Origin: Escherichia phage UP30
Direction: 5' to 3' (one strand)
Sequence record: OX638287
DNA: 49,834 bases
This document shows positions 1-49,834 of this stretch, in pieces. The stretch's first letter is position 1. Every line of letters starts with the position of its first letter. The notes under the pieces were generated by a model that was given only the letters and a program-made list of their open reading frames with translations, searched no databases and had not been told where the DNA came from. A program made the translations under genes and the position numbers.

Positions 1-516
1 ATGAGCAATACCAATCAGGAATTAAAAATCACCGATATGATTCGCCTAACCTGCGATGCAATGTACCGCGACAAAGGCATGAAAGAGTTCTCTTTCGTGG
101 CTGATGATATGGCGAGAGAGGCGGTAAAATTTTACTTCCGAGATCAGGATATTTCAGATGATGAGGTGGAGCGCGGAGCTACCGGGTGGGTGAACCAGAA
201 CCAGGGCGAGGTGGAGAAGCGATTCAAGTCGGCTTTCATCACCCCGATCATTACCCGACACTTCTGCAAGTATGGCAAGGTGGCAAAGGTTAAGGTAGGC
301 AGGAATGACGCAGCAATCACTATGATAACCGTTACCGTTACCGACGAAGAGGCTCCGGTGAAGAAGCGCCGCAGCCGGAAGAAAGTTAGCCTGGCTGATT
401 GCCTGGACTCGTTTGTGGTGGATGTGCGTAAGTTGGCTGATAGCGAGCTAATGACACGTGATGTGAATGAGATCGTGCGCCAGATGAAAGAGCATATTGA
501 AAAGTGTGGACTGTAA
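1..516 (+). CDS. hypothetical early protein (171 aa)
   Basis: ATG at position 1; AGAGGA RBS lies at the window end (49823-49828), implying circular permutation; no motif recognised. Confidence 0.55.
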   Translation: MSNTNQELKITDMIRLTCDAMYRDKGMKEFSFVADDMAREAVKFYFRDQDISDDEVERGATGWVNQNQGEVEKRFKSAFITPIITRHFCKYGKVAKVKVGRNDAAITMITVTVTDEEAPVKKRRSRKKVSLADCLDSFVVDVRKLADSELMTRDVNEIVRQMKEHIEKCGL

Positions 517-528
517 GGAGAGATGACT

Positions 529-789
529 ATGAGCAAGATTAAGCATGACGCCCTGAAAGGTATTTTGATGCGACTGGAGCCGGGCGAGGCATTCCAGCTT
601 AACCCCGAAACGTTCGGATTCGTAGGCTTCTATCGGCTTGGCCTACAGATGAGTTCTCCAGCCGATGAGCTTGTCCGGTATGTGCGCAAGCAATTCGGTG
701 TCGAGATGATTAGTCTGGGCAAAGTGCAAGGCATCCAGCTATTTATCTTCAAGCCAAATAAGATTCGTTGCTTCACCCTGATGAAATAG
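529..789 (+). CDS. hypothetical protein (86 aa)
   Basis: ORF 523-789; second ATG at 529 has better spacing to AAGGAG (515-520); stop TAG is first triplet of dyad box. Confidence 0.5.
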   Translation: MSKIKHDALKGILMRLEPGEAFQLNPETFGFVGFYRLGLQMSSPADELVRYVRKQFGVEMISLGKVQGIQLFIFKPNKIRCFTLMK

Positions 790-835
790 CACTTTTTGTT
801 AAAACCGGATCGGGATAACCTGGTATAGTTATCCC
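787..835 (+). promoter_or_regulatory. early promoter module: dyad box + inverted repeat carrying TGgTATAGT
   Basis: tagcactttttgttaaaac 787-805; gggataacc...ggttatccc 812-835. Confidence 0.6.
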
Positions 836-860
836 ATCAACAACGAATGAGGAAGCGAAT

Positions 861-1055
861 ATGGAAACGCAAATTGACGTAGTGGTTGTTCAGCGTGACT
901 CTACTCATGAAAAGGGTCTGTTCAAGAAGGGAGTCGAAATCACGATAGATCTTGAGGATATGGTTGCATATCACTCGGGCCTCACCTGGAACGTGGTGCG
1001 CGTGGGTAGCGACTACAAACTCAAAGGATTTAACACTTACTTCGCGGAGGCTTAA
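861..1055 (+). CDS. hypothetical protein (64 aa)
   Basis: ORF with GAGGAAG RBS, preceded by box + hairpin promoter module. Confidence 0.55.
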   Translation: METQIDVVVVQRDSTHEKGLFKKGVEITIDLEDMVAYHSGLTWNVVRVGSDYKLKGFNTYFAEA

Positions 1056-1057
1056 TC

Positions 1058-1528
1058 ATGACAACAATCACTGTATTCTTGGCGAAAGACGAACTGGACG
1101 ACGAAATGTCATTCTTCGCGTTTGAGCACAGAACCGGATCGCACTGGCACACTTACAGCCACTACACGGTTATCTCAATCGAAGCGTACGACGGGGATTT
1201 GCTCACTGACAAGCTGAGTGATTTTATTGAAACTGTTAAGACTAGCGAAGGTTGCGAGTGGAAAGAAGATCATGAAGTTATGCGAATGTACGAGATGATT
1301 AATCCGGTTCGCCTTGAGTCGTTCGAGCTTGATCCTGATGTGACTATTAAGGTGAGAAAGCCTGGTGAGTTGTTGCCAGGGATGCGTGTGCTGACTGGTT
1401 GCACAGGCCGTAAGGTGTGGCGCACGGTATCGAAGGTTCGCCAGCGTTCAGAAACATGCTATAGCTTATTCTTTGAAGATGGTTGGAATGAGATGGCTGG
1501 TAGCGAAGTGAAGTACCTCACCAAATAG
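1058..1528 (+). CDS. hypothetical protein (156 aa)
   Basis: ORF, GGAGG RBS, stop TAG embedded in box. Confidence 0.6.
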   Translation: MTTITVFLAKDELDDEMSFFAFEHRTGSHWHTYSHYTVISIEAYDGDLLTDKLSDFIETVKTSEGCEWKEDHEVMRMYEMINPVRLESFELDPDVTIKVRKPGELLPGMRVLTGCTGRKVWRTVSKVRQRSETCYSLFFEDGWNEMAGSEVKYLTK

Positions 1529-1574
1529 CACGAATTGTTAAAACCGGATCGGGGTATCTTGATATAGTTACCCC
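1526..1574 (+). promoter_or_regulatory. early promoter module
   Basis: tagcacgaattgttaaaac; ggggtatcTTGATATAGTtacccc. Confidence 0.6.
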
Positions 1575-1606
1575 ATCGAAACGAGATACCAATCAGAGGA
1601 ATCACC

Positions 1607-1870
1607 ATGTCAATCGTCAAGAATCGCAAAGCAATCGAAGCTACCCGTCACAACAAGCAACACGCGATTTTCATCTCTCGCTACTGCTCAAATATCAATG
1701 ATGGCGCACAGTATCGACGCTATGCAGTTATTGAGCTTTCCCCGTACATTTACAAGGAGTATCTCGAGGATAACGGCAAATGGATTGAGACTGAAGGCAT
1801 GACGAGCTTCTTGATCTGGAATGGTGAATTTCAGGGTTATGACGATATCAGCACTTTAATTGAGGAATAA
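1607..1870 (+). CDS. hypothetical protein (87 aa)
   Basis: ORF preceded by promoter module and CCAATCAGAGGAAT leader. Confidence 0.55.
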   Translation: MSIVKNRKAIEATRHNKQHAIFISRYCSNINDGAQYRRYAVIELSPYIYKEYLEDNGKWIETEGMTSFLIWNGEFQGYDDISTLIEE

Positions 1871-1876
1871 ATAATT

Positions 1877-2104
1877 ATGCCGCGTTACAGCAATCTAACT
1901 CAACTAACCCGCGTCAACGGGCACATGATCCCGGCTAAATCTACTCACTGCGCGAAAGGCGCAAAGCACGGATTATATTTCAAGTGGCGCGGTCAATGGA
2001 ACTTCACGGCGGTGAGCAATTTTTACATGCGCGTTCCTGGTGATGACCCGCAATCGGTAGTAGAAAACTCAATCGGCGACAACAAGATCGAGGTACTAAA
2101 ATGA
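1877..2104 (+). CDS. hypothetical protein (75 aa)
   Basis: ORF, GAGGAATAA RBS. Confidence 0.5.
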   Translation: MPRYSNLTQLTRVNGHMIPAKSTHCAKGAKHGLYFKWRGQWNFTAVSNFYMRVPGDDPQSVVENSIGDNKIEVLK

Positions 2105-2211
2105 ACTTTAATACAGTAGCGCTATGGTCTGCCGTCTGGTTCTTCTGCATGGGTCACGTTATGGTCGGCATTGTGGTAATGCTTCTCCTGTGTGCGGGGG
2201 CGTTCGAATGA
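2101..2211 (+). CDS. putative small hydrophobic protein (36 aa, MNFNTVALWSAVWFFCMGHVMVGIVVMLLLCAGAFE)
   Basis: ATGA start/stop overlap with upstream gene and with next gene; hydrophobic; below the 60-aa ORF-track cutoff. Confidence 0.3.
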   Translation: MNFNTVALWSAVWFFCMGHVMVGIVVMLLLCAGAFE

Positions 2212-2381
2212 TGCGAATATTGATTTTCATGATGGCGGCGGTCGCCATGGCTATCCTGATAGTGTCAGGATGCGGAGAGGTCAGAGATAGCTGTCATAAG
2301 ACCGGGAACCAGGTTACTACGTTTGTGATGGTTGGCAACGTTCTGCTACCAATCACATCAAATGAAATCACTTGCGAATAG
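2208..2381 (+). CDS. putative lipoprotein (57 aa; signal peptide with lipobox IVSGC)
   Basis: In-frame internal ATGATG of ORF 2124-2381; N-terminal hydrophobic stretch then Cys lipobox. Confidence 0.4.
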   Translation: MMRILIFMMAAVAMAILIVSGCGEVRDSCHKTGNQVTTFVMVGNVLLPITSNEITCE

Positions 2382-2390
2382 GATTTAACA

Positions 2391-2582
2391 ATGGCTGATT
2401 TTATGCACCAAATGATTGCAGTATTCAAAGGCAGCGATGACCAGGAAGTGAAAGAGTGCTTTACCGTTGACAAGCCTTATAGTGCGTCGCTTACCAGCTT
2501 CGGGAACATCTCATTGCTTGATGATAATGGAGATCCCTGGATATTCGACGAAGATACTGATTGCTTCGAAATTAAAGAATAG
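2391..2582 (+). CDS. hypothetical protein (63 aa)
   Basis: ORF, stop TAG is start of box. Confidence 0.5.
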   Translation: MADFMHQMIAVFKGSDDQEVKECFTVDKPYSASLTSFGNISLLDDNGDPWIFDEDTDCFEIKE

Positions 2583-2628
2583 CACTTTTTGTTAAAACTC
2601 AATATAGGGGTTGCGCTATAGTAACCCC
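2580..2628 (+). promoter_or_regulatory. early promoter module
   Basis: tagcactttttgttaaaac; ggggttgcgcTATAGTaacccc. Confidence 0.6.
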
Positions 2629-2653
2629 ATCGACAACGAGCGAGGACGATAGC

Positions 2654-3142
2654 ATGAAAATCAAATTACTTTGCACTGGCGGTTATAAAGGCTTTACCCG
2701 AGATCTGGAAGCAGACCCTATCGTGGTTGATGCGGTGAAGTGTGATGATAGCCTCGGCGGCTACCGCGTGAAGTTTGACGACCTGGTTAAAGCTGGTGTG
2801 TACGATCTGGATTATGGACTTTCGGTTAGCCCGGTAGTCGGCCCGGCAGATTTCAACGAGAAGGACGGAACGATGTTCTTTTTTGAATGGGAAGTGCAAT
2901 CAAACATCAAGCCGCGCAAGGTTCGTCTTCTCAGCAATGGCGGCTACCCTATGCGCCCAGGTTATGAGAATCGCACGTTCCCGGTTATCGTTGACTTTGA
3001 AGAAATCACCGCACACTTAGCTTATATCAACGGTGAACAGCTTAATGCTGTTGGATTCGTGGGAGGTATGAATCAAGAGGCGCTATGCTTCTTCCATTGT
3101 AAAGCCGAGCCGTTCGATATTGAGTGCGAATTGGTTTACTAA
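2654..3142 (+). CDS. hypothetical protein (162 aa)
   Basis: ORF after promoter module, GAGGA RBS. Confidence 0.6.
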   Translation: MKIKLLCTGGYKGFTRDLEADPIVVDAVKCDDSLGGYRVKFDDLVKAGVYDLDYGLSVSPVVGPADFNEKDGTMFFFEWEVQSNIKPRKVRLLSNGGYPMRPGYENRTFPVIVDFEEITAHLAYINGEQLNAVGFVGGMNQEALCFFHCKAEPFDIECELVY

Positions 3143-6685: not shown

Positions 6686-7258
6686 ATGAAAACAGCTATC
6701 ATTTTAAACGGCGCGCCGGGCGCTGGTAAGGACACTATCGGCGCAATCCTGGCTGACATTTACGATCACGTAGCTTTGCGCAGCTTCAAAGAGCCGATGT
6801 TTGAGATTGCTCGGGCAATACTTGGTGAAACTAACTACGAGTATTTCATGTTCTTGTATGAGGACCGTCGATACAAAGAAGAGCCAGCATCTATCCTGAA
6901 CGGTAAAAGCCCACGCCAGTTTATGATCTGGATTAGCGAAGAGGTAATCAAGCCACAGTTCGGCAATCGCTTCTTCGGTATGCGAGCGGAAAGTAAGGTG
7001 AAAGAGTCGTACTCCCTTTCGGTATTTACTGACGGTGGATTCAAAGATGAGATCTTGCAAATGATTGAAGGCGATATCCAGGTAAAGCTATGTCGAATCC
7101 ATCGCAACGGTTGCAACTTCGATAATGACAGTCGCGATTATATCTACCTGGATGATATGATCGGGGTCAACGGTTATCAGGAATGTGATTTCTTCTCTGT
7201 TGAGGGTCATCCTGAAATTACCGCTCAGCACATAGCCGCCACATTCATCAATAAATAG
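6686..7258 (+). CDS. P-loop kinase, dNMP-kinase-like (190 aa)
   Basis: N-terminal GAPGAGKDT Walker A of the GKDT type seen in phage dNMP kinases. Confidence 0.5.
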   Translation: MKTAIILNGAPGAGKDTIGAILADIYDHVALRSFKEPMFEIARAILGETNYEYFMFLYEDRRYKEEPASILNGKSPRQFMIWISEEVIKPQFGNRFFGMRAESKVKESYSLSVFTDGGFKDEILQMIEGDIQVKLCRIHRNGCNFDNDSRDYIYLDDMIGVNGYQECDFFSVEGHPEITAQHIAATFINK

Positions 7259-9081: not shown

Positions 9082-9107
9082 TGGTAAAATAGCACTAAAT
9101 GTTAAAC
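9082..9107 (+). promoter_or_regulatory. terS promoter: extended -10 TGgTAAAAT directly followed by dyad box
   Basis: TGGTAAAAT 9082-9090; tagcactaaatgttaaac 9090-9107; ATG 9123. Confidence 0.45.
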
Positions 9108-9122
9108 AAAGAGGATGTATTT

Positions 9123-9647
9123 ATGAGTGAACCTAAGAATGCTCCCGTAGTCCAGGGAGGTAATTTCAAAGAGCTATACAAGAAAAAGTTCGGCACTGTT
9201 CTTGCGAAGAACCGGGCAATGACGCCTGAGCAATTATTCGATCTATCAGTGAAGTACTTTGAATGGGCCGAAGATAATGCGATTAAGGCGTCTGAGTCTG
9301 CCAGCTTCCAGGGTGGCGTTTACGAGTCACTTGTTCATAAACCTCGCGTCTTCACCTGGACCGGATACCGACTATTCATCGGCGCAAGCGAGGCCGCGAT
9401 CATTAAATGGAAGCGCGAGGAGGAATACAGTGAGGTTATGGAGTTCGTGGAATCCGTAATCAACGAGCAAAAATTCCAACTTGCCGCCAACGGTGTTATT
9501 AACGCCTCCTTTATCGGTAAGGATTTAGGGATCGATAAGCCAGCTTCAATCAATATCGAAAACTCGGCAGCTTCCGCGTCGACCGCCGTCGCCACTACTG
9601 AGGACGCAATGAAAGAGGCAGTAAACAGCATTCTTGATATGCTTTAA
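9123..9647 (+). CDS. terS: terminase small subunit (putative)
   Basis: Position immediately upstream of TerL; size; ATG 9123 with AAAGAGGA RBS (track ORF starts at 9099 inside the box). Confidence 0.5.
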   Translation: MSEPKNAPVVQGGNFKELYKKKFGTVLAKNRAMTPEQLFDLSVKYFEWAEDNAIKASESASFQGGVYESLVHKPRVFTWTGYRLFIGASEAAIIKWKREEEYSEVMEFVESVINEQKFQLAANGVINASFIGKDLGIDKPASINIENSAASASTAVATTEDAMKEAVNSILDML

Positions 9648-15784: not shown

Positions 15785-15812
15785 TTGACGCTTTAACAAA
15801 AAGTGCTATTAT
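15785..15812 (+). promoter_or_regulatory. strong sigma70-type promoter of capsid gene (TTGACG-16-TGcTATTAT) with inverted box in spacer
   Basis: -35 15785-15790, -10 15807-15812; box ttaacaaaaagtgctatta 15793-15811. Confidence 0.55.
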
Positions 15813-19560: not shown

Positions 19561-19578
19561 TAACAAAAAGTGCTATTA
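19561..19578 (-). promoter_or_regulatory. dyad box, inverted relative to downstream tail chaperone gene
   Basis: taacaaaaagtgctatta; followed by CCAATCAGGAG leader. Confidence 0.45.
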
Positions 19579-25722: not shown

Positions 25723-25764
25723 TGTATAATGGGTTCACCGATAAATAGCACAAAAAGGTAAACA
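25723..25764 (+). promoter_or_regulatory. J promoter: TGTATAAT then dyad box abutting RBS
   Basis: -10 TATAAT 25725-25730; tagcacaaaaaggtaaac 25746-25764; ATG 25767. Confidence 0.45.
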
Positions 25765-30433: not shown

Positions 30434-30462
30434 TTGTATGTCCTCGTCGTTAGTGTGATTGC

Positions 30463-30491
30463 ATTGTATGTCGCATTTACTTTTATTGCAA
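30463..30491 (-). promoter_or_regulatory. sigma70-type promoter of cor operon (TTGCAA-17-TACAAT)
   Basis: -35 30486-30491, -10 30463-30468 on minus strand. Confidence 0.5.
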
Positions 30492-30511
30492 TAGCTCGAT
30501 TACAATTTTTT

Positions 30512-30695
30512 CGTGTAACAGGTGTCTATTTTTGTAACCGGAATAGGTGTTACAAAATCGACCCCATCCGACCGCAGGGAGATATGATAAAAACTCTATA
30601 TAATATATATAGATAGATAATATTTAATTTTAGCTTTATATATATAATTATTGTTGTGTAACAGTTGTCTATCGTGTAACAGGTGATTTGATTGA
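30512..30695. repeat. direct repeats cgtgtaacaggtg (x2) and gtgtaacagNtgtctat (x2) flanking an AT-rich block
   Basis: 13-mer at 30512-30524 and 30673-30685; TGTAAC/GTTACA 7 times in 30514-30854. Confidence 0.6.
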
Positions 30696-30900
30696 TTCGT
30701 CAAATTTCTATCATATATGTTCAAAATTTAATCAATAGGGATTCCATTTATGGATATCTATGTATTTCTAAGAAAAAGCGGTTACAAGTGTTACGCAATA
30801 GACAGCACACAAAAACTGACTCAAGTTATTGATTCAGTTGATGCTGGTTGTAACTTGAGCAATATAGACACGCAATTACACACCAATTACATGTATTCGA

Positions 30901-30928
30901 TTGACTAAATGCTGTTAATGGCTATAAT
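30901..30928 (+). promoter_or_regulatory. canonical sigma70 promoter of recombination module (TTGACT-16-TATAAT)
   Basis: -35 30901-30906, -10 30923-30928, AAGGAG 30945-30950. Confidence 0.6.
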
Positions 30929-30959
30929 GGATTCATCGTAAACGAAGGAGATAAACGCA

Positions 30960-32024
30960 ATGTTTAAAGTATTCACATCAAGCCAGCTTTCTAATGACGA
31001 GTATCATAGCAATGAAGGTTGGGCGGCAGAGTATGTAAGCGGATCTAGCCTTGCTGAAATCTATCAGACTTGTCCGGCTAACTGGAGATTCAAGAAGAAC
31101 GAAACGACTAAAGCGCTGGAGTTCGGTACTCAGTCGCATACAAACTTTGAGAGTAGCGATCTGTTTACTGCAACGTATGCGCGTTGTCCGTCTCCGGCAG
31201 AGTTCAAAGATCTGATTACGTCACAAGCCGCGCTGGCTGCAAAATTAAAATCTTTCGGCCTGAAAGGTACATCCGGTAAGCAGTACCCGGACCTCATCAA
31301 AATGATGGTTGATTGCGGTGAAGATCTCAATGTTCAATATCTGATTGAACTGATTGCTGAAGCTGAGGCGCGTGCTGAAGGAAAGCAACTGGTTGACGCT
31401 GATAAATATGATGCCTGTATGAAGATGAGAGCCATCCTTGAGCAAAATCCCGATCATGAAGCGTGCATCAATAGCGAGACGGCCCAGCGTGAGATCTCAA
31501 TCTTCGGTGAGATATCCGGCGTAAAGGTTAAAGTTCGACTTGACCATTTGGACTATAAAGAGAATGTTCCAGGTCGTGTGCTGACTGGTTACGATGAGAA
31601 TGGCGATCCGGTATTCGAAGACGTGATTTTTCCTGAAGCACTGATTATCACCGACTTCAAAACAACTATGAGCGCTAACCCGTTAGAGTTCCCGAGACTG
31701 GCATACAATCACGGCTATTACCTGAAAATGGCATTGCAGCACGACCTGCTGCGACGTGCAATCCAGGCTGGCGCTTTTGAGGGTAACTTCCCGGAAGATA
31801 TCCCGATCGTAGTTCGATTACTGGCGCAGGAGAAAAAAGAGCCTTACATCGCCCTTGCTTACCGCATGACTATGGAGCAAATCAGGATCGGGCGTAGTCA
31901 GTATGTTAGCGTTGTCCACACCTACAAGGCTTGTTCTGAGATGGACGTTTGGCCCGGATACGCTGGCGACGCAAGCGAGATCGAACTTGAAACGCCGTCA
32001 TGGGTACGCTATCAAAACAAGTAA
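30960..32024 (+). CDS. recombination exonuclease (PD-(D/E)xK, YqaJ/RecE-like)
   Basis: ITDFKT motif; first gene of exo-Erf-SSB module; canonical promoter upstream. Confidence 0.55.
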   Translation: MFKVFTSSQLSNDEYHSNEGWAAEYVSGSSLAEIYQTCPANWRFKKNETTKALEFGTQSHTNFESSDLFTATYARCPSPAEFKDLITSQAALAAKLKSFGLKGTSGKQYPDLIKMMVDCGEDLNVQYLIELIAEAEARAEGKQLVDADKYDACMKMRAILEQNPDHEACINSETAQREISIFGEISGVKVKVRLDHLDYKENVPGRVLTGYDENGDPVFEDVIFPEALIITDFKTTMSANPLEFPRLAYNHGYYLKMALQHDLLRRAIQAGAFEGNFPEDIPIVVRLLAQEKKEPYIALAYRMTMEQIRIGRSQYVSVVHTYKACSEMDVWPGYAGDASEIELETPSWVRYQNK

Positions 32025-32026
32025 AC

Positions 32027-32074
32027 GGCACAAATAGCTAAACAAGTAATTAATGAGGTGTTATAATGCACCTC
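32027..32074 (+). promoter_or_regulatory. degenerate promoter module upstream of erf
   Basis: ggcacaaatagctaaac; hairpin gaggtgTTATAATgcacctc. Confidence 0.45.
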
Positions 32075-33236: not shown

Positions 33237-35020
33237 CATTTGGACTTCAATGTTTTTATCTCTTCTTGTAACTCTTCAACTTTCTTCATTGTATCCTGCA
33301 AAGCTCTCATAGTGTCAAGCAATAAAGGAGTTGTATCAAGCTCAAGCCTTTCAACTTTTGGCCCGTTTAGCTCGTGGCTCTCATAAACCCTTCTCTTAAC
33401 ATATAGATTGTCGATCTCTTCTATCTCCTGAGCTATAACACCTCGCCTTACCCTTTCTTGCTCATCATCGTTAAATATAAAGTTCCTAAATCTCATTGAT
33501 TTTATGTTGTTGTATGCAATGCTTGATTCATCATCCTTTATGCTGTGCTTTATATTTCTGTCAGATGCCGGAATCTGTTGGAAACTTCCAGCCCCTTGCG
33601 GTCCAGCGTAAGATATTTGCCCTGAAGCCATAAACCTGAAATGCATTTGCAGACCAATATTGCCTGCTCCATCCCTATCTTGAGCGCCTACTGATATTTG
33701 TGCCCTGGGCCATTCAGGATTACCCGTAGTCATCATGCCAAATGCTACGCCGCCAACGTATCCCTGACCTCTGGTGTCGCACGATCCAGCAATAAGTGAT
33801 TGATAGTTTTCAGCGCCACTATCGGCGGTGTAAGCACCAGCCTGAAAACACGTCTCAGACCACATCTGGTTGTAACCCATATTTCCTTTATTACATAAAA
33901 GCTGAGAAGCCCTGAATCTATTATTAGTCTCGAAGTAGTTTGAACCCTCATAAAACAATAAAGTTCCAGCATAACCATCACTTCCATTACCTTTTCTGAC
34001 GTAAAGCCCTGGCACAGAAAGTCCATCCGGTGAAATAATCATAAGTGATGAAAGTATGGACTGACTACCCCAGCTAGAACCGTCCCACGAGTTCCTTCCT
34101 GCACCTATAGGACCCGTGGTGTTAATAGTAAGAAAGTTAACAGCATCATTTTCACCTAACCCAATATTTTTTCTTGACTCTTTTTTATCCTCAAGGCCAG
34201 CTAGATTGCCATCCTTAGTTAAAAGATTTTCAGCATTGATGCTATTGGCTGCGTCTTTCGCTTCTTGAGCGCTCACCGCTGCCGCATCTTTTGAGCTAAC
34301 AGCATCGTCACGCGCTGCCTGAGCGTCGTTTTTTGCAGAGGTCGCCGTTTGTGCTGCCGTTTGAGCGTCATTAACGTAACCTGACAGATCGCCTTTTGCG
34401 TCATTAATTGCCTGAATCGCCGCCGCTTCTTCTGAGTCAATGTGAGAAATGACAGATGATTCCTTTGATCCTATATCAGTTATGGCCTGATCCTTCGCCG
34501 CATTGATGCTACCGACAGCACCGTCAACAATCTGCTGTGTCTGATTCTTGATTGAGTTAGTTTCATCACGTGCGGCGTTAGCTGCGTCACGAGCTAATTC
34601 AGCCTGGTTTTGTGCGGCTTGAGAGTCTGATTTAGCCTGGTTCACCTCAGCAACTATTTGCTCAAGTTTATTCATATCAAGCTGATTTATCAGGTCTATA
34701 GCTGCTGCGATCTCAGTCTCCTTGCTTTGATAGTATCTAAGCGTCTCAGCAACGTTTTGAGCCAAGCCGTTAACAGTCAACGAATCGTTAAGCAGGATCA
34801 CATACTTACCGTCAGCGGCAGTCTGACCATCTGTAGAGATAGCCTTTAACTCAGTATCGCTCACGATATCGCTAATTACAGCCAGCTTAATCGGTTGCTC
34901 CAGAAATACGATGGTTGCACCGACTCGAATAAGAGCAAGCTGGTCTTTCCATTTTGTATCGGTTCCGCGAACCGTACCGTCTGCATCCATTGATGCTGTG
35001 CCGCGTCTATATAAAGCCAT
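33236..35020 (-). CDS. tail fibre with C-terminal intramolecular chaperone (S74-type) domain
   Basis: Coiled-coil Ala/Gln-rich shaft; C-terminal ~120 aa with GVIAQEIEEI-type motif and coiled-coil end. Confidence 0.7.
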   Translation of the reverse strand: MALYRRGTASMDADGTVRGTDTKWKDQLALIRVGATIVFLEQPIKLAVISDIVSDTELKAISTDGQTAADGKYVILLNDSLTVNGLAQNVAETLRYYQSKETEIAAAIDLINQLDMNKLEQIVAEVNQAKSDSQAAQNQAELARDAANAARDETNSIKNQTQQIVDGAVGSINAAKDQAITDIGSKESSVISHIDSEEAAAIQAINDAKGDLSGYVNDAQTAAQTATSAKNDAQAARDDAVSSKDAAAVSAQEAKDAANSINAENLLTKDGNLAGLEDKKESRKNIGLGENDAVNFLTINTTGPIGAGRNSWDGSSWGSQSILSSLMIISPDGLSVPGLYVRKGNGSDGYAGTLLFYEGSNYFETNNRFRASQLLCNKGNMGYNQMWSETCFQAGAYTADSGAENYQSLIAGSCDTRGQGYVGGVAFGMMTTGNPEWPRAQISVGAQDRDGAGNIGLQMHFRFMASGQISYAGPQGAGSFQQIPASDRNIKHSIKDDESSIAYNNIKSMRFRNFIFNDDEQERVRRGVIAQEIEEIDNLYVKRRVYESHELNGPKVERLELDTTPLLLDTMRALQDTMKKVEELQEEIKTLKSK

Positions 35021-38680: not shown

Positions 38681-39093
38681 TTACAGACAAAGGTGATTAT
38701 TTAGAGTTTTACGAACGAGATCCCAGCGACACACGAAAGGAGGACGCGCACCAGGTAGATTGCGTGTCCTGGCTGAAATACAATTTCCCACATCTTCTAT
38801 TTTGGCACACTGTAAATGAAGGTGAAAAAACAATCACCTCGGCGCTCAGGGATGAGCAGGCTGGGTTACTTAAAGGAGTGTCAGACTTCGTTATCCTGAT
38901 TGGTGTAAACTCACGCTACCCGTTCGCAGCTATCGAACTCAAGCGGGTTAATAAGTCCGGCAAGGGAAAGGCGTCACCAGTCAGCGATAAGCAAAAGGAA
39001 TTTCTCCGCAATGTTCGTCAACGAGGTGGATTTGCTGCGGTTGCATATGGATTGGAGCAATTCAAGATCGCAATTTACGAAATGATGAAATAG
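38677..39093 (+). CDS. VRR-NUC-type nuclease
   Basis: PD-(D/E)xK-like core (VSDFVIL...AAIELK); ATGA overlap with helicase. Confidence 0.6.
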   Translation: MITDKGDYLEFYERDPSDTRKEDAHQVDCVSWLKYNFPHLLFWHTVNEGEKTITSALRDEQAGLLKGVSDFVILIGVNSRYPFAAIELKRVNKSGKGKASPVSDKQKEFLRNVRQRGGFAAVAYGLEQFKIAIYEMMK

Positions 39094-42684: not shown

Positions 42685-43172
42685 TGAGCTTAAAAAATAA
42701 CGTTATAGGCGCATCGATCGGGGCTGCTTTGACGTTGACGCCTACCCTGCTGGAACGAATCGAAGGGATAGAATACGAGGTGTATTACGATATCGCCGGA
42801 GTCCCTACCGTATGCAGCGGAATAACCGGGCCGGACGTCATACCTGGTAAGAAATACACTAAGCGAGAATGCGATGCATTACTGATAAAACATATCGGCG
42901 TCGCTCAGCGATACGTTGACAAAAAGGTGAATGTTGATATTCCGGTAACGATGCGCGCGTCACTGTACAGCTTCACTTTCAACGTTGGTACTGGCGCGTT
43001 CGGATCTTCTACAATGCTTAAGCTAATAAATCAGAGTAAGCACAAGGAAGCGTGCAATCAGTTATGGCGATGGGTATACTACCACAACCCAAAAACAAAA
43101 AAGCGAGAAGTGTCTAGAGGACTTAAGAACCGACGCGCTGAAGAATACGCGTATTGCGTTAAGGAATTATGA
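42684..43172 (+). CDS. SAR endolysin (T4-lysozyme-like)
   Basis: N-terminal weakly hydrophobic SAR-like segment; catalytic E-x8-D-x5-T pattern ([16 protein letters not shown]). Confidence 0.75.
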
Positions 43173-49022: not shown

Positions 49023-49148
49023 TTATCGCTTACCCTGACCGTTGCAAGCCGGACACGTGATTCGCTGCATTGTCCAGACTCCAGTGAATAAAGGAACCAG
49101 GGTAAATCCACGACCAGCGCACTGACTACAAACCTGTTTAACTTTCAT
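49023..49148 (-). CDS. putative small zinc-ribbon protein (41 aa; CSQC...CPAC)
   Basis: ATG 49148 after CCAATCAGAAGAGGAAG leader, in-frame within ORF 49023-49217. Confidence 0.4.
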   Translation of the reverse strand: MKVKQVCSQCAGRGFTLVPLFTGVWTMQRITCPACNGQGKR

Positions 49149-49164
49149 TGCTGCTTCCTCTTCT

Positions 49165-49227
49165 GATTGGTTGATGTGATGAATCATACCCTGCCAACCT
49201 GGTCCAGTCGTTAGCAAAAAATGCTAT
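49165..49227 (-). promoter_or_regulatory. promoter module (minus strand)
   Basis: Minus-sense atagcattttttgctaac; TATGAT; CCAATCAGAAGAGG leader. Confidence 0.45.
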
Positions 49228-49413
49228 TCCAATAATTGCTTATTATTCCATCAATGCTGGAATAGGTGGAATAATTTTGATTCCGATTGATTGCAAATGA
49301 TGAAACATGATTATTGCATGGTGTGCAACAGTTGGTTGATTTATTGCTGAGATTACAATGATTGTGAGAGGGAGGATCTAGTGTTACCCGGTTCGCCTGG
49401 TAGTCATCTCCAT
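49228..49413 (-). ncRNA. candidate non-coding transcript between two minus-oriented dyad boxes
   Basis: No ORF >21 aa on either strand; bracketed by boxes; ATTCC/GGAAT repeat cluster. Confidence 0.2.
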
Positions 49414-49434
49414 TTTTAGCAAAAAGTGCTACCG
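49414..49434 (-). promoter_or_regulatory. dyad box without adjacent ORF
   Basis: Minus-sense tagcactttttgctaaaa; next 190 nt leftward have no ORF >21 aa. Confidence 0.4.
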
Positions 49435-49521
49435 ATTACACTTTAACTTGTCACTGCTGTAATATTTGTCTAGAATCACACTTGTGACAAAATTACGCAC
49501 TGTGACACCTCACAATATACA

Positions 49522-49552
49522 TATAGATATATGTATCTATATAATATATATA
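49522..49552. repeat. AT-rich palindrome TATAGATA-N4-TATCTATA and 18-mer tctatataatatatatag shared with 30596-30613
   Basis: Exact 18-mer at 49535-49552 and 30596-30613. Confidence 0.55.
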
Positions 49553-49834
49553 GTATTTTTTTTATTTATATATATAGATAATTATATTGTAATAATTGTG
49601 TATAGTTGTCTTACATTGTCTAGCGTACTGTTGGCATATTTCTATCTGCATGTTTATATATACAGTACTTTTTTGAGAGCTATATATTTCTATATGGACT
49701 CTAGACAGCTAGACAAATGTTACACGGCTTAAAATCGGCTTGCAGGCATTGACAACTCTACGTCGCGCTGTCACAATGGCAATTGTTGACACGTTATGAC
49801 GCCATTTACACGCAAATAGACAAAGAGGATATAT

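Follow-up and report, generated by a model that had tools for sequence, protein, structure and literature searches.

An intergenic region of Escherichia phage UP30 as a probable T1-family genome-end junction, with a candidate packaging site between divergent early promoters

Introduction

What is the function of the 686 bp (49149-49834) that separate the leftward early block from gene 1 in Escherichia phage UP30 (sequence record OX638287)? The window analysed here, the whole stretch of 49,834 bp, is a complete T1-like genome (Drexlerviridae, Tunavirus). Because position 1 of the window is that of the gene 1 ATG, this gap spans the circular junction. A preliminary description, made from the letters alone, had called it a non-coding control region, one of two analogous ones in the genome, and had proposed that it could be a replication origin, a packaging site or an early switch. 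Our answer, to which we give a probability of about 70%, is that the gap is the T1-family genome-end junction: a packaging site (pac) placed between divergent early promoters and followed by a long AT-rich leader before gene 1.

Results

The gap is non-coding and is related to the genome ends of T1 and TLS

The gap, with its flanks, shares 88-93% identity with IME18, Eco_BIFF, phi2013, SA30RD, pSf-2 and about 25 other tunaviruses, and most of these records carry no annotation at all under this match. The claim that the gap contains no open reading frame (ORF) over 21 aa proved correct for ATG starts. Under translation table 11, it failed for a frame of 88 codons with a TTG start (49466-49732), which runs across AT-rich DNA. 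None of the internal frames had a PHROG match, including the 88-codon frame and the longest ATG frame (21 aa) between the two boxes described below. Since the 88-codon frame has no PHROG homologue and is moreover broken in BIFF, T1 and ADB-2, a hidden gene was rejected and the gap was taken as non-coding. An Rfam scan by E-value gave no match above threshold, the only sub-threshold match being outside the gap, and a consensus scan of the gap called no intrinsic terminator. All the motifs listed in the preliminary description were found, 0-3 nt from their given positions, and each was over-represented or otherwise non-random. The general view of the gap as non-coding control DNA therefore stands, with no conserved coding gene detected by PHROG homology.

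An alignment of 11 tunaviruses showed that a core at 49211-49440 is almost invariant, also in T1 and SH6, in which the sequence to the right of it is strongly diverged. As compared to T1, both the right half of the gap (49440-49834) and gene 1 differ. The core aligns almost base for base with the start of the T1 record (NC_005833). This record opens with an annotated repeat_region of 2800 bp (1..2800), corresponding to the terminal redundancy, and its position 1 aligns to position 49313. T1 also has the same gene order (leftward small-gene block, gap, gene 1) and a TerS of the same family. The T1 record itself gives no sequence determinants for the T1 pac. Similarly, position 1 of TLS falls in a TGAT array equivalent to that described in the next section. 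Judged in this way, by homology only, the gap is the orthologue of the T1/TLS genome-end region, that is, a locus of a kind already known, and its earlier designation as a possible packaging site was borne out on this ground.

Apart from T1, five tunavirus genome records in GenBank have their first base within 49313-49401, and a fragment contig begins at 49300; some of these may copy T1. Contig ends were also used as a proxy for pac, and one Logan contig and seven IMG/VR loci gave no information. Published work places pac in this untranslated region of T1 and T1-like phages (PMC7718038), and the pac of TLS was located using restriction fragments (PMC11447400). With the homology to the T1 and TLS ends, we consider it highly probable that pac lies within 49227-49416.

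A phased TGAT array is a candidate pac determinant

Within the core, TGATT, TGATT, TGATG and TGATT begin on the + strand at positions 49278, 49288, 49298 and 49308 (array 49278-49312), and hence follow each other in exact 10-bp steps. Neither strand of the genome has another chain of at least three such motifs spaced by 10-11 bp, and a four-step chain was obtained in 0 of 200 shuffled genomes. The stretch of this array is the genome's densest window of TGAT[TG]/GATT. T1 has the same four-step chain, while three-step chains are found at the same place in Webervirus (Klebsiella phages) and in Badaguanvirus IME347. In TLS, which belongs to a different subfamily, two chains of three TGAT flank the record start, which itself is about 115 nt to the right of TLS box 1.

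The array is followed by a dyad, ATTGCA-tggtg-TGCAAC (49313-49329; in general form (A/G)TTGCA-tggtg-TGCAAC), whose first base is the one aligned to T1 position 1. The 16-mer found at the T1 genome start, TTGCATGGTGTGCAAC, is unique in the window. Two further TGATT on the + strand, at 49337 and 49359 (49337-49363), are conserved and stand roughly in helical phase with the left array. We propose that the phased array binds TerS and forms the left part of pac, that the dyad is the cleavage region, from which packaging would proceed rightward, and that the two further motifs form the right part. The helical phasing suggests that the DNA is wrapped on a TerS ring. We found no description of a family-wide phased TGAT array in the accessible literature, and we put the array forward as a candidate T1-family pac determinant with a presumed TerS contact.

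The TerS gene (9123-9647) belongs to phrog_606. Its product is 98-100% identical to the listed tunavirus TerS and about 35% identical to P22-type gp3. The 524-aa ORF directly downstream presumably encodes TerL. Because the PHROG match begins at residue 14 of the TerS frame and a ribosome-binding site (RBS) precedes ATG 9123, the true start is probably 9123. A copy of the repeat box described below, at 9090-9104, overlaps the first ATG of the frame (9099).

To the left of the array lies a cluster of TATTCC/GGAATA motifs (49225-49273), in which direct TATTCC at 49225 and 49244 face GGAATA at 49259 and 49268. Counted as ATTCC/GGAAT, the copies are at 49226, 49245, 49259 (-), 49268 (-) and 49280. 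Four of the 12 genome copies of TGGAATA fall here within 50 bp, as compared to 0.17 expected. The cluster is kept across genera, in 137 Webervirus (Klebsiella) records, IME347 and F20, and TLS has at its place two copies of the palindrome AGACCGATTGGTCT. On the right side of the core, a conserved imperfect inverted repeat, GGAGGATC...ATCTCC, is followed by TTTTT on the + strand (49371-49411). Its fold is not energetically unusual (z = -0.7).

In lambda, the two best matches to the whole core fall on the 16-mer TTGCATGGTGTGCAAC, at 33458-33473 and 42839-42854 (ninG, between P and Q). Each copy has at most two mismatches, with about 0.03 expected, and neither is accompanied by a TGAT array. T1 is reported to start packaging lambda between genes P and Q (Drexler 1984). 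We take the lambda copies as T1 pac-like sites as a lead only.

Probable divergent promoters on both sides of the core

Two boxes, box 1 (TAGCAAAAAATGCTA, 49212-49226) and box 2 (TAGCAAAAAGTGCTA, 49417-49431), stand on the two sides of the candidate pac, with 190 nt between them. The pattern TAGCA-N5-TGCTA, with at most one mismatch, has 24 matches in the genome as compared to 1.2 expected. The boxes are copies of a known T1-family 21-nt repeat, aaATAGCACnnnTTGnTAAAA. Direct repeats of this kind have been described for TLS, T1, Rtp and Rogue1; their function was left open in 2024, a stoperator, an enhancer site and a UP element being the options offered by the TLS authors (PMC11447400). In the present genome, the boxes are always oriented with the local genes. 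A -10-like hexamer is found 21-23 nt downstream of 20 of the 25 boxes, at exactly 22 nt in 17 cases, with other offsets occurring 0-3 times. About half of the boxes also have TG one base 5′ of the hexamer (an extended -10, TGn). This fixed spacing points to box promoters with an upstream site of the activator type and no -35. The boxes had been taken for dyads, and a symmetric character was not confirmed. They are oriented and asymmetric, variation in TGYTA affects one side only, and the marbox pattern discussed in the next section explains them better than symmetric dyads or RNA hairpins do.

Box 1, read as TAGCATTTTTTGCTA on the - strand, is followed after a 23-nt spacer by a -10 hexamer, TATGAT (49188-49183). 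The whole would form a class II-type box promoter, P_L (49175-49226), with a predicted start at about 49175. An RBS and ATG 49148 come after box 1. The TLS repeats have the same consensus and are likewise oriented with transcription; box 1 agrees with them, with GCAT instead of GCAC, and lies 78 nt ahead of its ATG, as compared to about 76 nt between repeat and start codon in TLS. The P_L box and -10 are invariant in the 11 tunaviruses and are present in Webervirus and TLS.

Box 2 (49415-49431, -) matches the aaATAGCACnnnTTGnTAAAA consensus. In contrast to the TLS repeats, it has no downstream start codon or gene and no -10 on its own strand, and it fits an upstream site for a promoter on the opposite strand. 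Indeed, a sigma-70-type promoter, P_R (TTGTCA-17-TAGAAT, 49448-49476, +), with 10 of 12 consensus matches, is predicted to start at about 49483, so that box 2 would be a reverse marbox about 61-62 bp upstream of this start. In relatives the position of P_R is kept and its hexamers are changed (TTGATT-17-TATGAT in T1, TTGTAA-17-TACCAT in SH6). The spacing from box 2 to P_R is retained in T1, ADB-2 and SH6 despite the different promoter hexamers. The preliminary description had the boxes bracketing about 190 nt and suggested mapping transcripts there. The spacing is right. As for a transcript, a -10 is missing on the strand of box 2 and no RNA-structure signal was seen, and the 190 nt are therefore better read as an untranscribed spacer between divergent promoters. 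The boxes are likewise better read as facing outward functionally, box 1 serving a leftward and box 2 a rightward promoter, with pac in the spacer.

Two TGTGACA (49483-49507, +) mark the start of the putative P_R leader, and a third copy, in inverted orientation at 49769, overlaps the -10 of a putative promoter of gene 1. Together these TGTGACA/TGTCACA, at 49483, 49501 and 49769, are three of the five genome copies. Gene 1 would also have a proximal promoter, TTGACA-17-CACAAT with an upstream TG (49749-49777) and a predicted start at about 49784, followed by TAGACA at 49817 and by the RBS AAGAGGA at 49823-49829 (whole feature 49749-49829, +). TTGACA is present at 49749 and at 49786, and the suggestion that such hexamers face gene 1 agrees with the copy at 49749 being part of this plausible promoter. 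SA30RD annotates a homologous gene 1 promoter, which is itself a consensus prediction. Overall, we regard the promoter assignments at the junction as likely, with start sites that are predicted.

The boxes resemble marboxes of both promoter classes

Position by position, the box repeat with its flanks matches the marbox of E. coli, whose 20-nt consensus is reportedly AYnGCACnnWnnRYYAAAY (attributed to Martin et al. 1999). Using the marbox pattern AYNGCACNNWNNRYYAAAY with at most one mismatch, 21 matches were found in the genome as compared to 0.89 expected, two of them new intergenic copies, and lambda gave 0. The boxes fit two published marbox definitions, gcannwwntgnnaaa (PMC12052159) and CAC(G/T)-7X-AAA (PMC8811837), and the variation among the phage boxes is confined to the degenerate positions of both.

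Position and orientation were then compared with those of known sites. In class II, the marbox is in forward orientation, overlaps the -35 and has its centre at -36 to -55, whereas in class I it is reversed and its centre lies at -56 to -85 (PMC12052159). Box 1 has the features of class II: it is forward, centred at about -41 from the predicted start, and 23 nt from its -10. In E. coli micF, as read from genomes, the marbox GCACTGAATGTCAAA is 22 nt from the -10 TAGAAT, a spacing equal to that of the phage boxes. Box 2 has those of class I. It is centred at about -61 to -62 from the P_R start, and its TTTAGC is 33 nt from the P_R -35, as compared to 34 nt between the TTTAGC of the reverse marbox and the -35 TTGACT of E. 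coli marRAB, also read from genomes. In several relatives, an uninterrupted run of 14 bases is common to box 2 and the mar marbox. Accessible papers gave no link between T1-like phages and marboxes, and the agreement of the boxes with the two classes of Mar/Sox/Rob promoter appears new relative to that literature.

A search of all six-frame ORFs for a phage-encoded MarA-like activator, using phmmer with MarA and SoxS as queries, gave a best E-value of 1, and Pfam found no AraC or HTH_18 domain in 40 ORFs. Such an activator was therefore rejected. With no AraC-type protein found by these searches, a host Mar/Sox/Rob protein is the simplest candidate, and since in sequence, orientation and spacing the boxes agree with E. 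coli MarA/SoxS/Rob sites it is also the likeliest. We nevertheless hold the actual use of such a host protein at the boxes to be tentative, at slightly under an even chance.

Several observations weigh against this reading of the boxes. Box 1 and box 2 both depart from the 20-nt marbox consensus at 2-3 positions, and the start sites of all the box promoters are predicted. Furthermore, inverted repeats of 5-15 bp, specific to each copy and with compensatory arm changes, surround or just precede the -10 of many box promoters (box starts 787, 1526, 2580, 3867, 5441, 5961, 7256, 39091, 40114, 42102, 46233, 46750 and 47866). The marbox model leaves them unexplained. Finally, when the Keio collection was screened with LL5, a TLS-like phage, none of rob, marA and soxS emerged as required (PMC7229145), a result in which redundancy among the three genes could hide a requirement, single knockouts having been screened. 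The LL5 result would agree with the boxes being bound by an unrecognised phage protein, or acting as UP-like elements or 'stoperators', the likeness to marboxes then being convergent. These are among the options considered for TLS (PMC11447400). The phage has more than 30 small early proteins without known fold or function, and the extended -10 of many copies could work without an activator. However, convergence would have to account for a match that spans sequence, degenerate positions, orientation, spacing and both promoter classes, no AraC-type protein was found in the searches above, and a stoperator role leaves the fixed 22-nt distance to the -10 unexplained. We consider this alternative possible and on the unlikely side.

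Some further observations concern the box family. Two extra intergenic marbox-like boxes, ATAGCACAAAAAGGTAAAC (25745-25763) and ACGGCACAAATAGCTAAAC (32025-32043), were missed by the dyad pattern; the second has TATAAT 21 nt downstream. SA30RD annotates the inverted repeats mentioned above as rho-independent terminators, though no T-run follows them. In five cases (787-789, 1526-1528, 2580-2582, 7256-7258 and 39091-39093) the TAG that begins the box is at the same time the stop codon of the preceding gene, so that the gene end is fused with the next promoter. Two leftward boxes, 15794-15808 and 19561-19575, lie within the rightward late (structural) block, the one at 19561 being followed at 22 nt by a -10-like hexamer. 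These two boxes may serve the transcription of antisense RNA or of small genes.

An AT-rich core with a counterpart in the cor/recE region

To the right of P_R, the sequence at 49514-49613 is extremely AT-rich, with 12% GC over 100 bp and 5% GC at 49538-49597. Of all 80-bp windows of the genome, the one with the least stable duplex is found here (49515-49594, -71.2 kcal). The second least stable one (30581-30660, -76.8 kcal) lies in the region between cor (leftward) and recE (rightward), at 30434-30960. With a genome mean of -109.9 and a standard deviation of 5.9, the two cores are 5.6-6.5 standard deviations from the mean. The cor/recE region is 92-95% identical across tunaviruses including T1 and is flanked by divergent promoters.

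The two regions also have sequence elements in common. The first core contains a palindrome, TATAGATA-N4-TATCTATA, at 49522-49541 (three of the four genome copies of TATAGATA) and an 18-mer, TCTATATAATATATATAG, at 49536-49553. This 18-mer, one base away from the coordinates of the preliminary description, is identical to 30595-30612. TAGACA/TGTCTA occurs in the gap at 49467, 49617, 49702, 49710 and 49817 (5 of 14 genome copies) and in the cor/recE region at 30523, 30666, 30799 and 30865. Nine of the 14 copies are thus concentrated in two regions that make up 1.9% of the genome (p ~1e-11). The earlier positions of this motif were right in general, except that the copy assigned to 49606 reads TGTCTT and that at 49467 had been overlooked. 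A composite 16-nt site, TGTAAYANNTGTCTAK, was observed in these two regions only, at 49458, 49599 (degenerate), 49709 (inverted), 30514 and 30657, and its copies bracket both AT-rich cores. The copy at 49458-49473, TGTAATATTTGTCTAG, overlaps the P_R spacer and -10. Its inverted partner on the - strand, CTAGACAAATGTTACA (49709-49724), is 94% complementary to it, and the same composite, TGTAACANNTGTCTAT, is found at 30514 and 30657. These 16-nt sites are placed as an operator would be and look operator-like for a putative binding protein. Because the 18-mer, TAGACA and the 16-nt sites are common to both, and both have the lowest stability, the claim of two analogous control regions is correct as regards the AT-rich right half of the gap. 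It does not extend to the pac part (49227-49416), which is not alike.

The AT-rich core at 49514-49613 resembles a DNA unwinding element. Such AT-rich elements are known from phage origins, for instance lambda ori and the T7 primary origin. As in these, the core is bracketed by repeated sites and lies downstream of a promoter; in contrast to them, it has no tandem iterons, DnaA boxes are not enriched, and the genome has two cores. The core and its 16-nt sites could therefore be a replication origin, with 30581-30660 as a second one, in addition to the functions proposed above. In that case the TGTAAYANNTGTCTAK sites would be the targets of an initiator that opens the core, possibly aided by transcription from P_R, and this is compatible with pac and promoters at the same junction. 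The low stability of the two stretches and the exclusiveness of the repeated sites that bracket them speak for this possibility, as does the fact that the second region adjoins recombination and replication genes. It is attractive also because in Webervirus and TLS an AT-rich core, with flanking repeats specific to their own lineages, likewise lies 200-300 nt to the right of pac. For TLS itself, the paper on that phage identified no origin (PMC11447400). On the other hand, DnaA boxes at the core were rejected, since the genome has 40 matches as compared to 45.6 expected and the gap only one, with one mismatch (49597-49605), and no initiator gene was found. Extreme AT-richness also fits a promoter UP element, curved DNA or nucleoid-protein binding. 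The cores hold TATAAT-like hexamers, and the overlap of one 16-nt site with P_R is what an operator would show. On balance we regard an origin as a candidate function, though a rather unlikely one.

Other observations were made in the same DNA. Beside the second core, at 30559-30579 (-), two overlapping terminator-like hairpins with T-runs were found, as compared to 0.1 expected. At T1 ~415-445 (aligned to 49700-49726) and in ADB-2, three tandem CGATTAACA plus TGTTAATCA-type sites occupy the place where the present phage has TAGACA/TGTAAYA (TGTAACA); gene 1 differs there too. ATGTTTATATATACAGTA, at 49650-49667, is conserved in T1 and ADB-2 within otherwise diverged DNA. It matches the LexA box consensus at 16 of 20 positions, with ATG in place of the critical CTG.

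Weighing the position of pac

Other observations count against placing pac in the conserved core. Position 1 of T1 was read from the annotation of its record and may be approximate. The final pac assignment in TLS leaned partly on a 6-nt resemblance to the P22 pac (PMC11447400). In KanT1, a close relative, clear termini were not obtained with PhageTerm (PMC13164509), and SU57 had no visible submolar pac fragment (PMC7718038). As for the TATTCC/GGAATA cluster, its link to packaging is weak because TLS does not have it, though the TLS TerS is as similar as that of Webervirus. Covariation of TerS with the motif was set aside as non-informative, since the TerS of Webervirus (51%) and of TLS-like phages (54%) are equally distant and only TLS is without the cluster.

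Given these unclear termini and the uncertain basis of T1 position 1, pac might be elsewhere, the core 49227-49416 serving for instance as a regulatory array for the divergent promoters and T1 position 1 being a convention. P22, with a related TerS, keeps its pac inside the TerS gene. Nevertheless, the T1 and TLS genome starts come from separate studies and fall on the same architecture, the five tunavirus records and the one contig start near 49313, and the TGAT array is kept across genera, so that we judge a pac outside the core improbable. The proposal that 49227-49416 encodes a small RNA or peptide expressed leftward from box 2 has in its favour the high conservation of the sequence and the orientation of box 2, which is that of box 1, but it was rejected as very improbable: no -10 follows box 2 at the family spacing, the folds of 49228-49416 are ordinary on both strands, as single sequence and as alignment (z -1.6 to +0.6, no supported helices), no Rfam family reached threshold, and the longest ATG frame, of 21 aa, is the one without PHROG match mentioned above.

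Neighbouring features

The first gene of the leftward early block (49023-49148, -), just outside the gap, is the putative target of P_L. It encodes a 41-aa CXXCXGXG zinc-ribbon protein, which appears in the ORF list and matches Pfam DnaJ_CXXCXGXG with E=2e-6, under the curated cut-off. An extended frame of 64 aa gave weak PHROG matches to Q-like antiterminators (E=2e-4). The sub-threshold Rfam match, to a twister-P3 ribozyme (49031-49104, +; 27.5 bits as compared to a gathering threshold of 39.9, E=0.003), sits on the strand opposite to the 41-aa ORF and is probably due to chance. To the right of the junction, a 64-aa protein encoded at 861-1055 (+) matches Pfam PF25180, 'Phage antiviral trigger protein Gp54' (E=9e-36).

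Discussion

From observed motif statistics, conservation, homology to the T1 and TLS ends and matching geometry, we infer a scheme in which the protein-DNA contacts, the start sites and the cut position are all deduced. Box 1 (49212-49226) would activate a promoter without a -35, with its -10 at 49183-49188, and drive the leftward early block. A TerS oligomer like P22 gp3 would bind one helix face over the TGAT motifs spaced by 10 bp (49278-49312) and reach on to 49337 and 49359, possibly helped by the inverted TATTCC/GGAATA cluster. TerL would make its first cut at or near the dyad 49313-49329, and headful packaging would go rightward. Box 2 (49417-49431), which faces away from P_R, would be an upstream activator site about 61-62 bp from the P_R start. 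Transcription from P_R would read through the AT-rich core toward gene 1, which would also be served by its proximal promoter (49749-49777). Both boxes, together with about 23 others in the genome, may be bound by a host Mar/Sox/Rob activator. The TGTAAYANNTGTCTAK sites may act as operators for a putative protein that would also use those of the cor/recE gap.

This scheme can be compared with known systems. Headful pac sites include the TGATCA/G hexamers that flank the cut in P1, pacL-pacC-pacR in SPP1, and the 22-bp pac of P22 bound by gp3. As in these three, short repeated motifs are found here on both sides of the putative cleavage region, and TerS is homologous to P22 gp3. In contrast to P22, the candidate pac is outside the TerS gene, about 9.6 kb upstream of TerS. 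The TGAT motifs of the present phage contain no GATC, whereas those of T1 contain two, which shows that a Dam control like that of P1 is not conserved. The junction is also akin to divergent activator-dependent sigma-70 promoters. Known here from sequence alone, the geometry is micF-like for box 1 and marRAB-like for box 2. As compared to chromosomal marboxes, the phage boxes are carried by the genome of a virulent phage, number about 25 copies and are far more uniform.

By extension, we suggest that Drexlerviridae build most of their early and middle promoters (about 25 per genome) as Mar/Sox/Rob-type promoters, micF-like class II and marRAB-like class I, with Rob as the most plausible activator, and that they package from a TGAT array on TerS. 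This generalisation is offered tentatively, its odds falling somewhat short of even.

Overall, the control region first noticed in this gap is real and ordinary in kind, being the expected T1-type genome end. The candidate TGAT array helps to set genome starts for hundreds of Drexlerviridae records and to understand generalized transduction by T1. The marbox reading makes the 21-nt repeats of the T1 family, whose function was open as of 2024, directly testable. If it is true, the gene expression of these phages would be driven or tuned by host regulators of antibiotic and oxidative stress, among which Rob is constitutively abundant. T1-like phages are notorious for contaminating laboratories and also serve in phage therapy; their growth would then be tied to a host regulon that antibiotics, salicylate, bile and oxidants induce.

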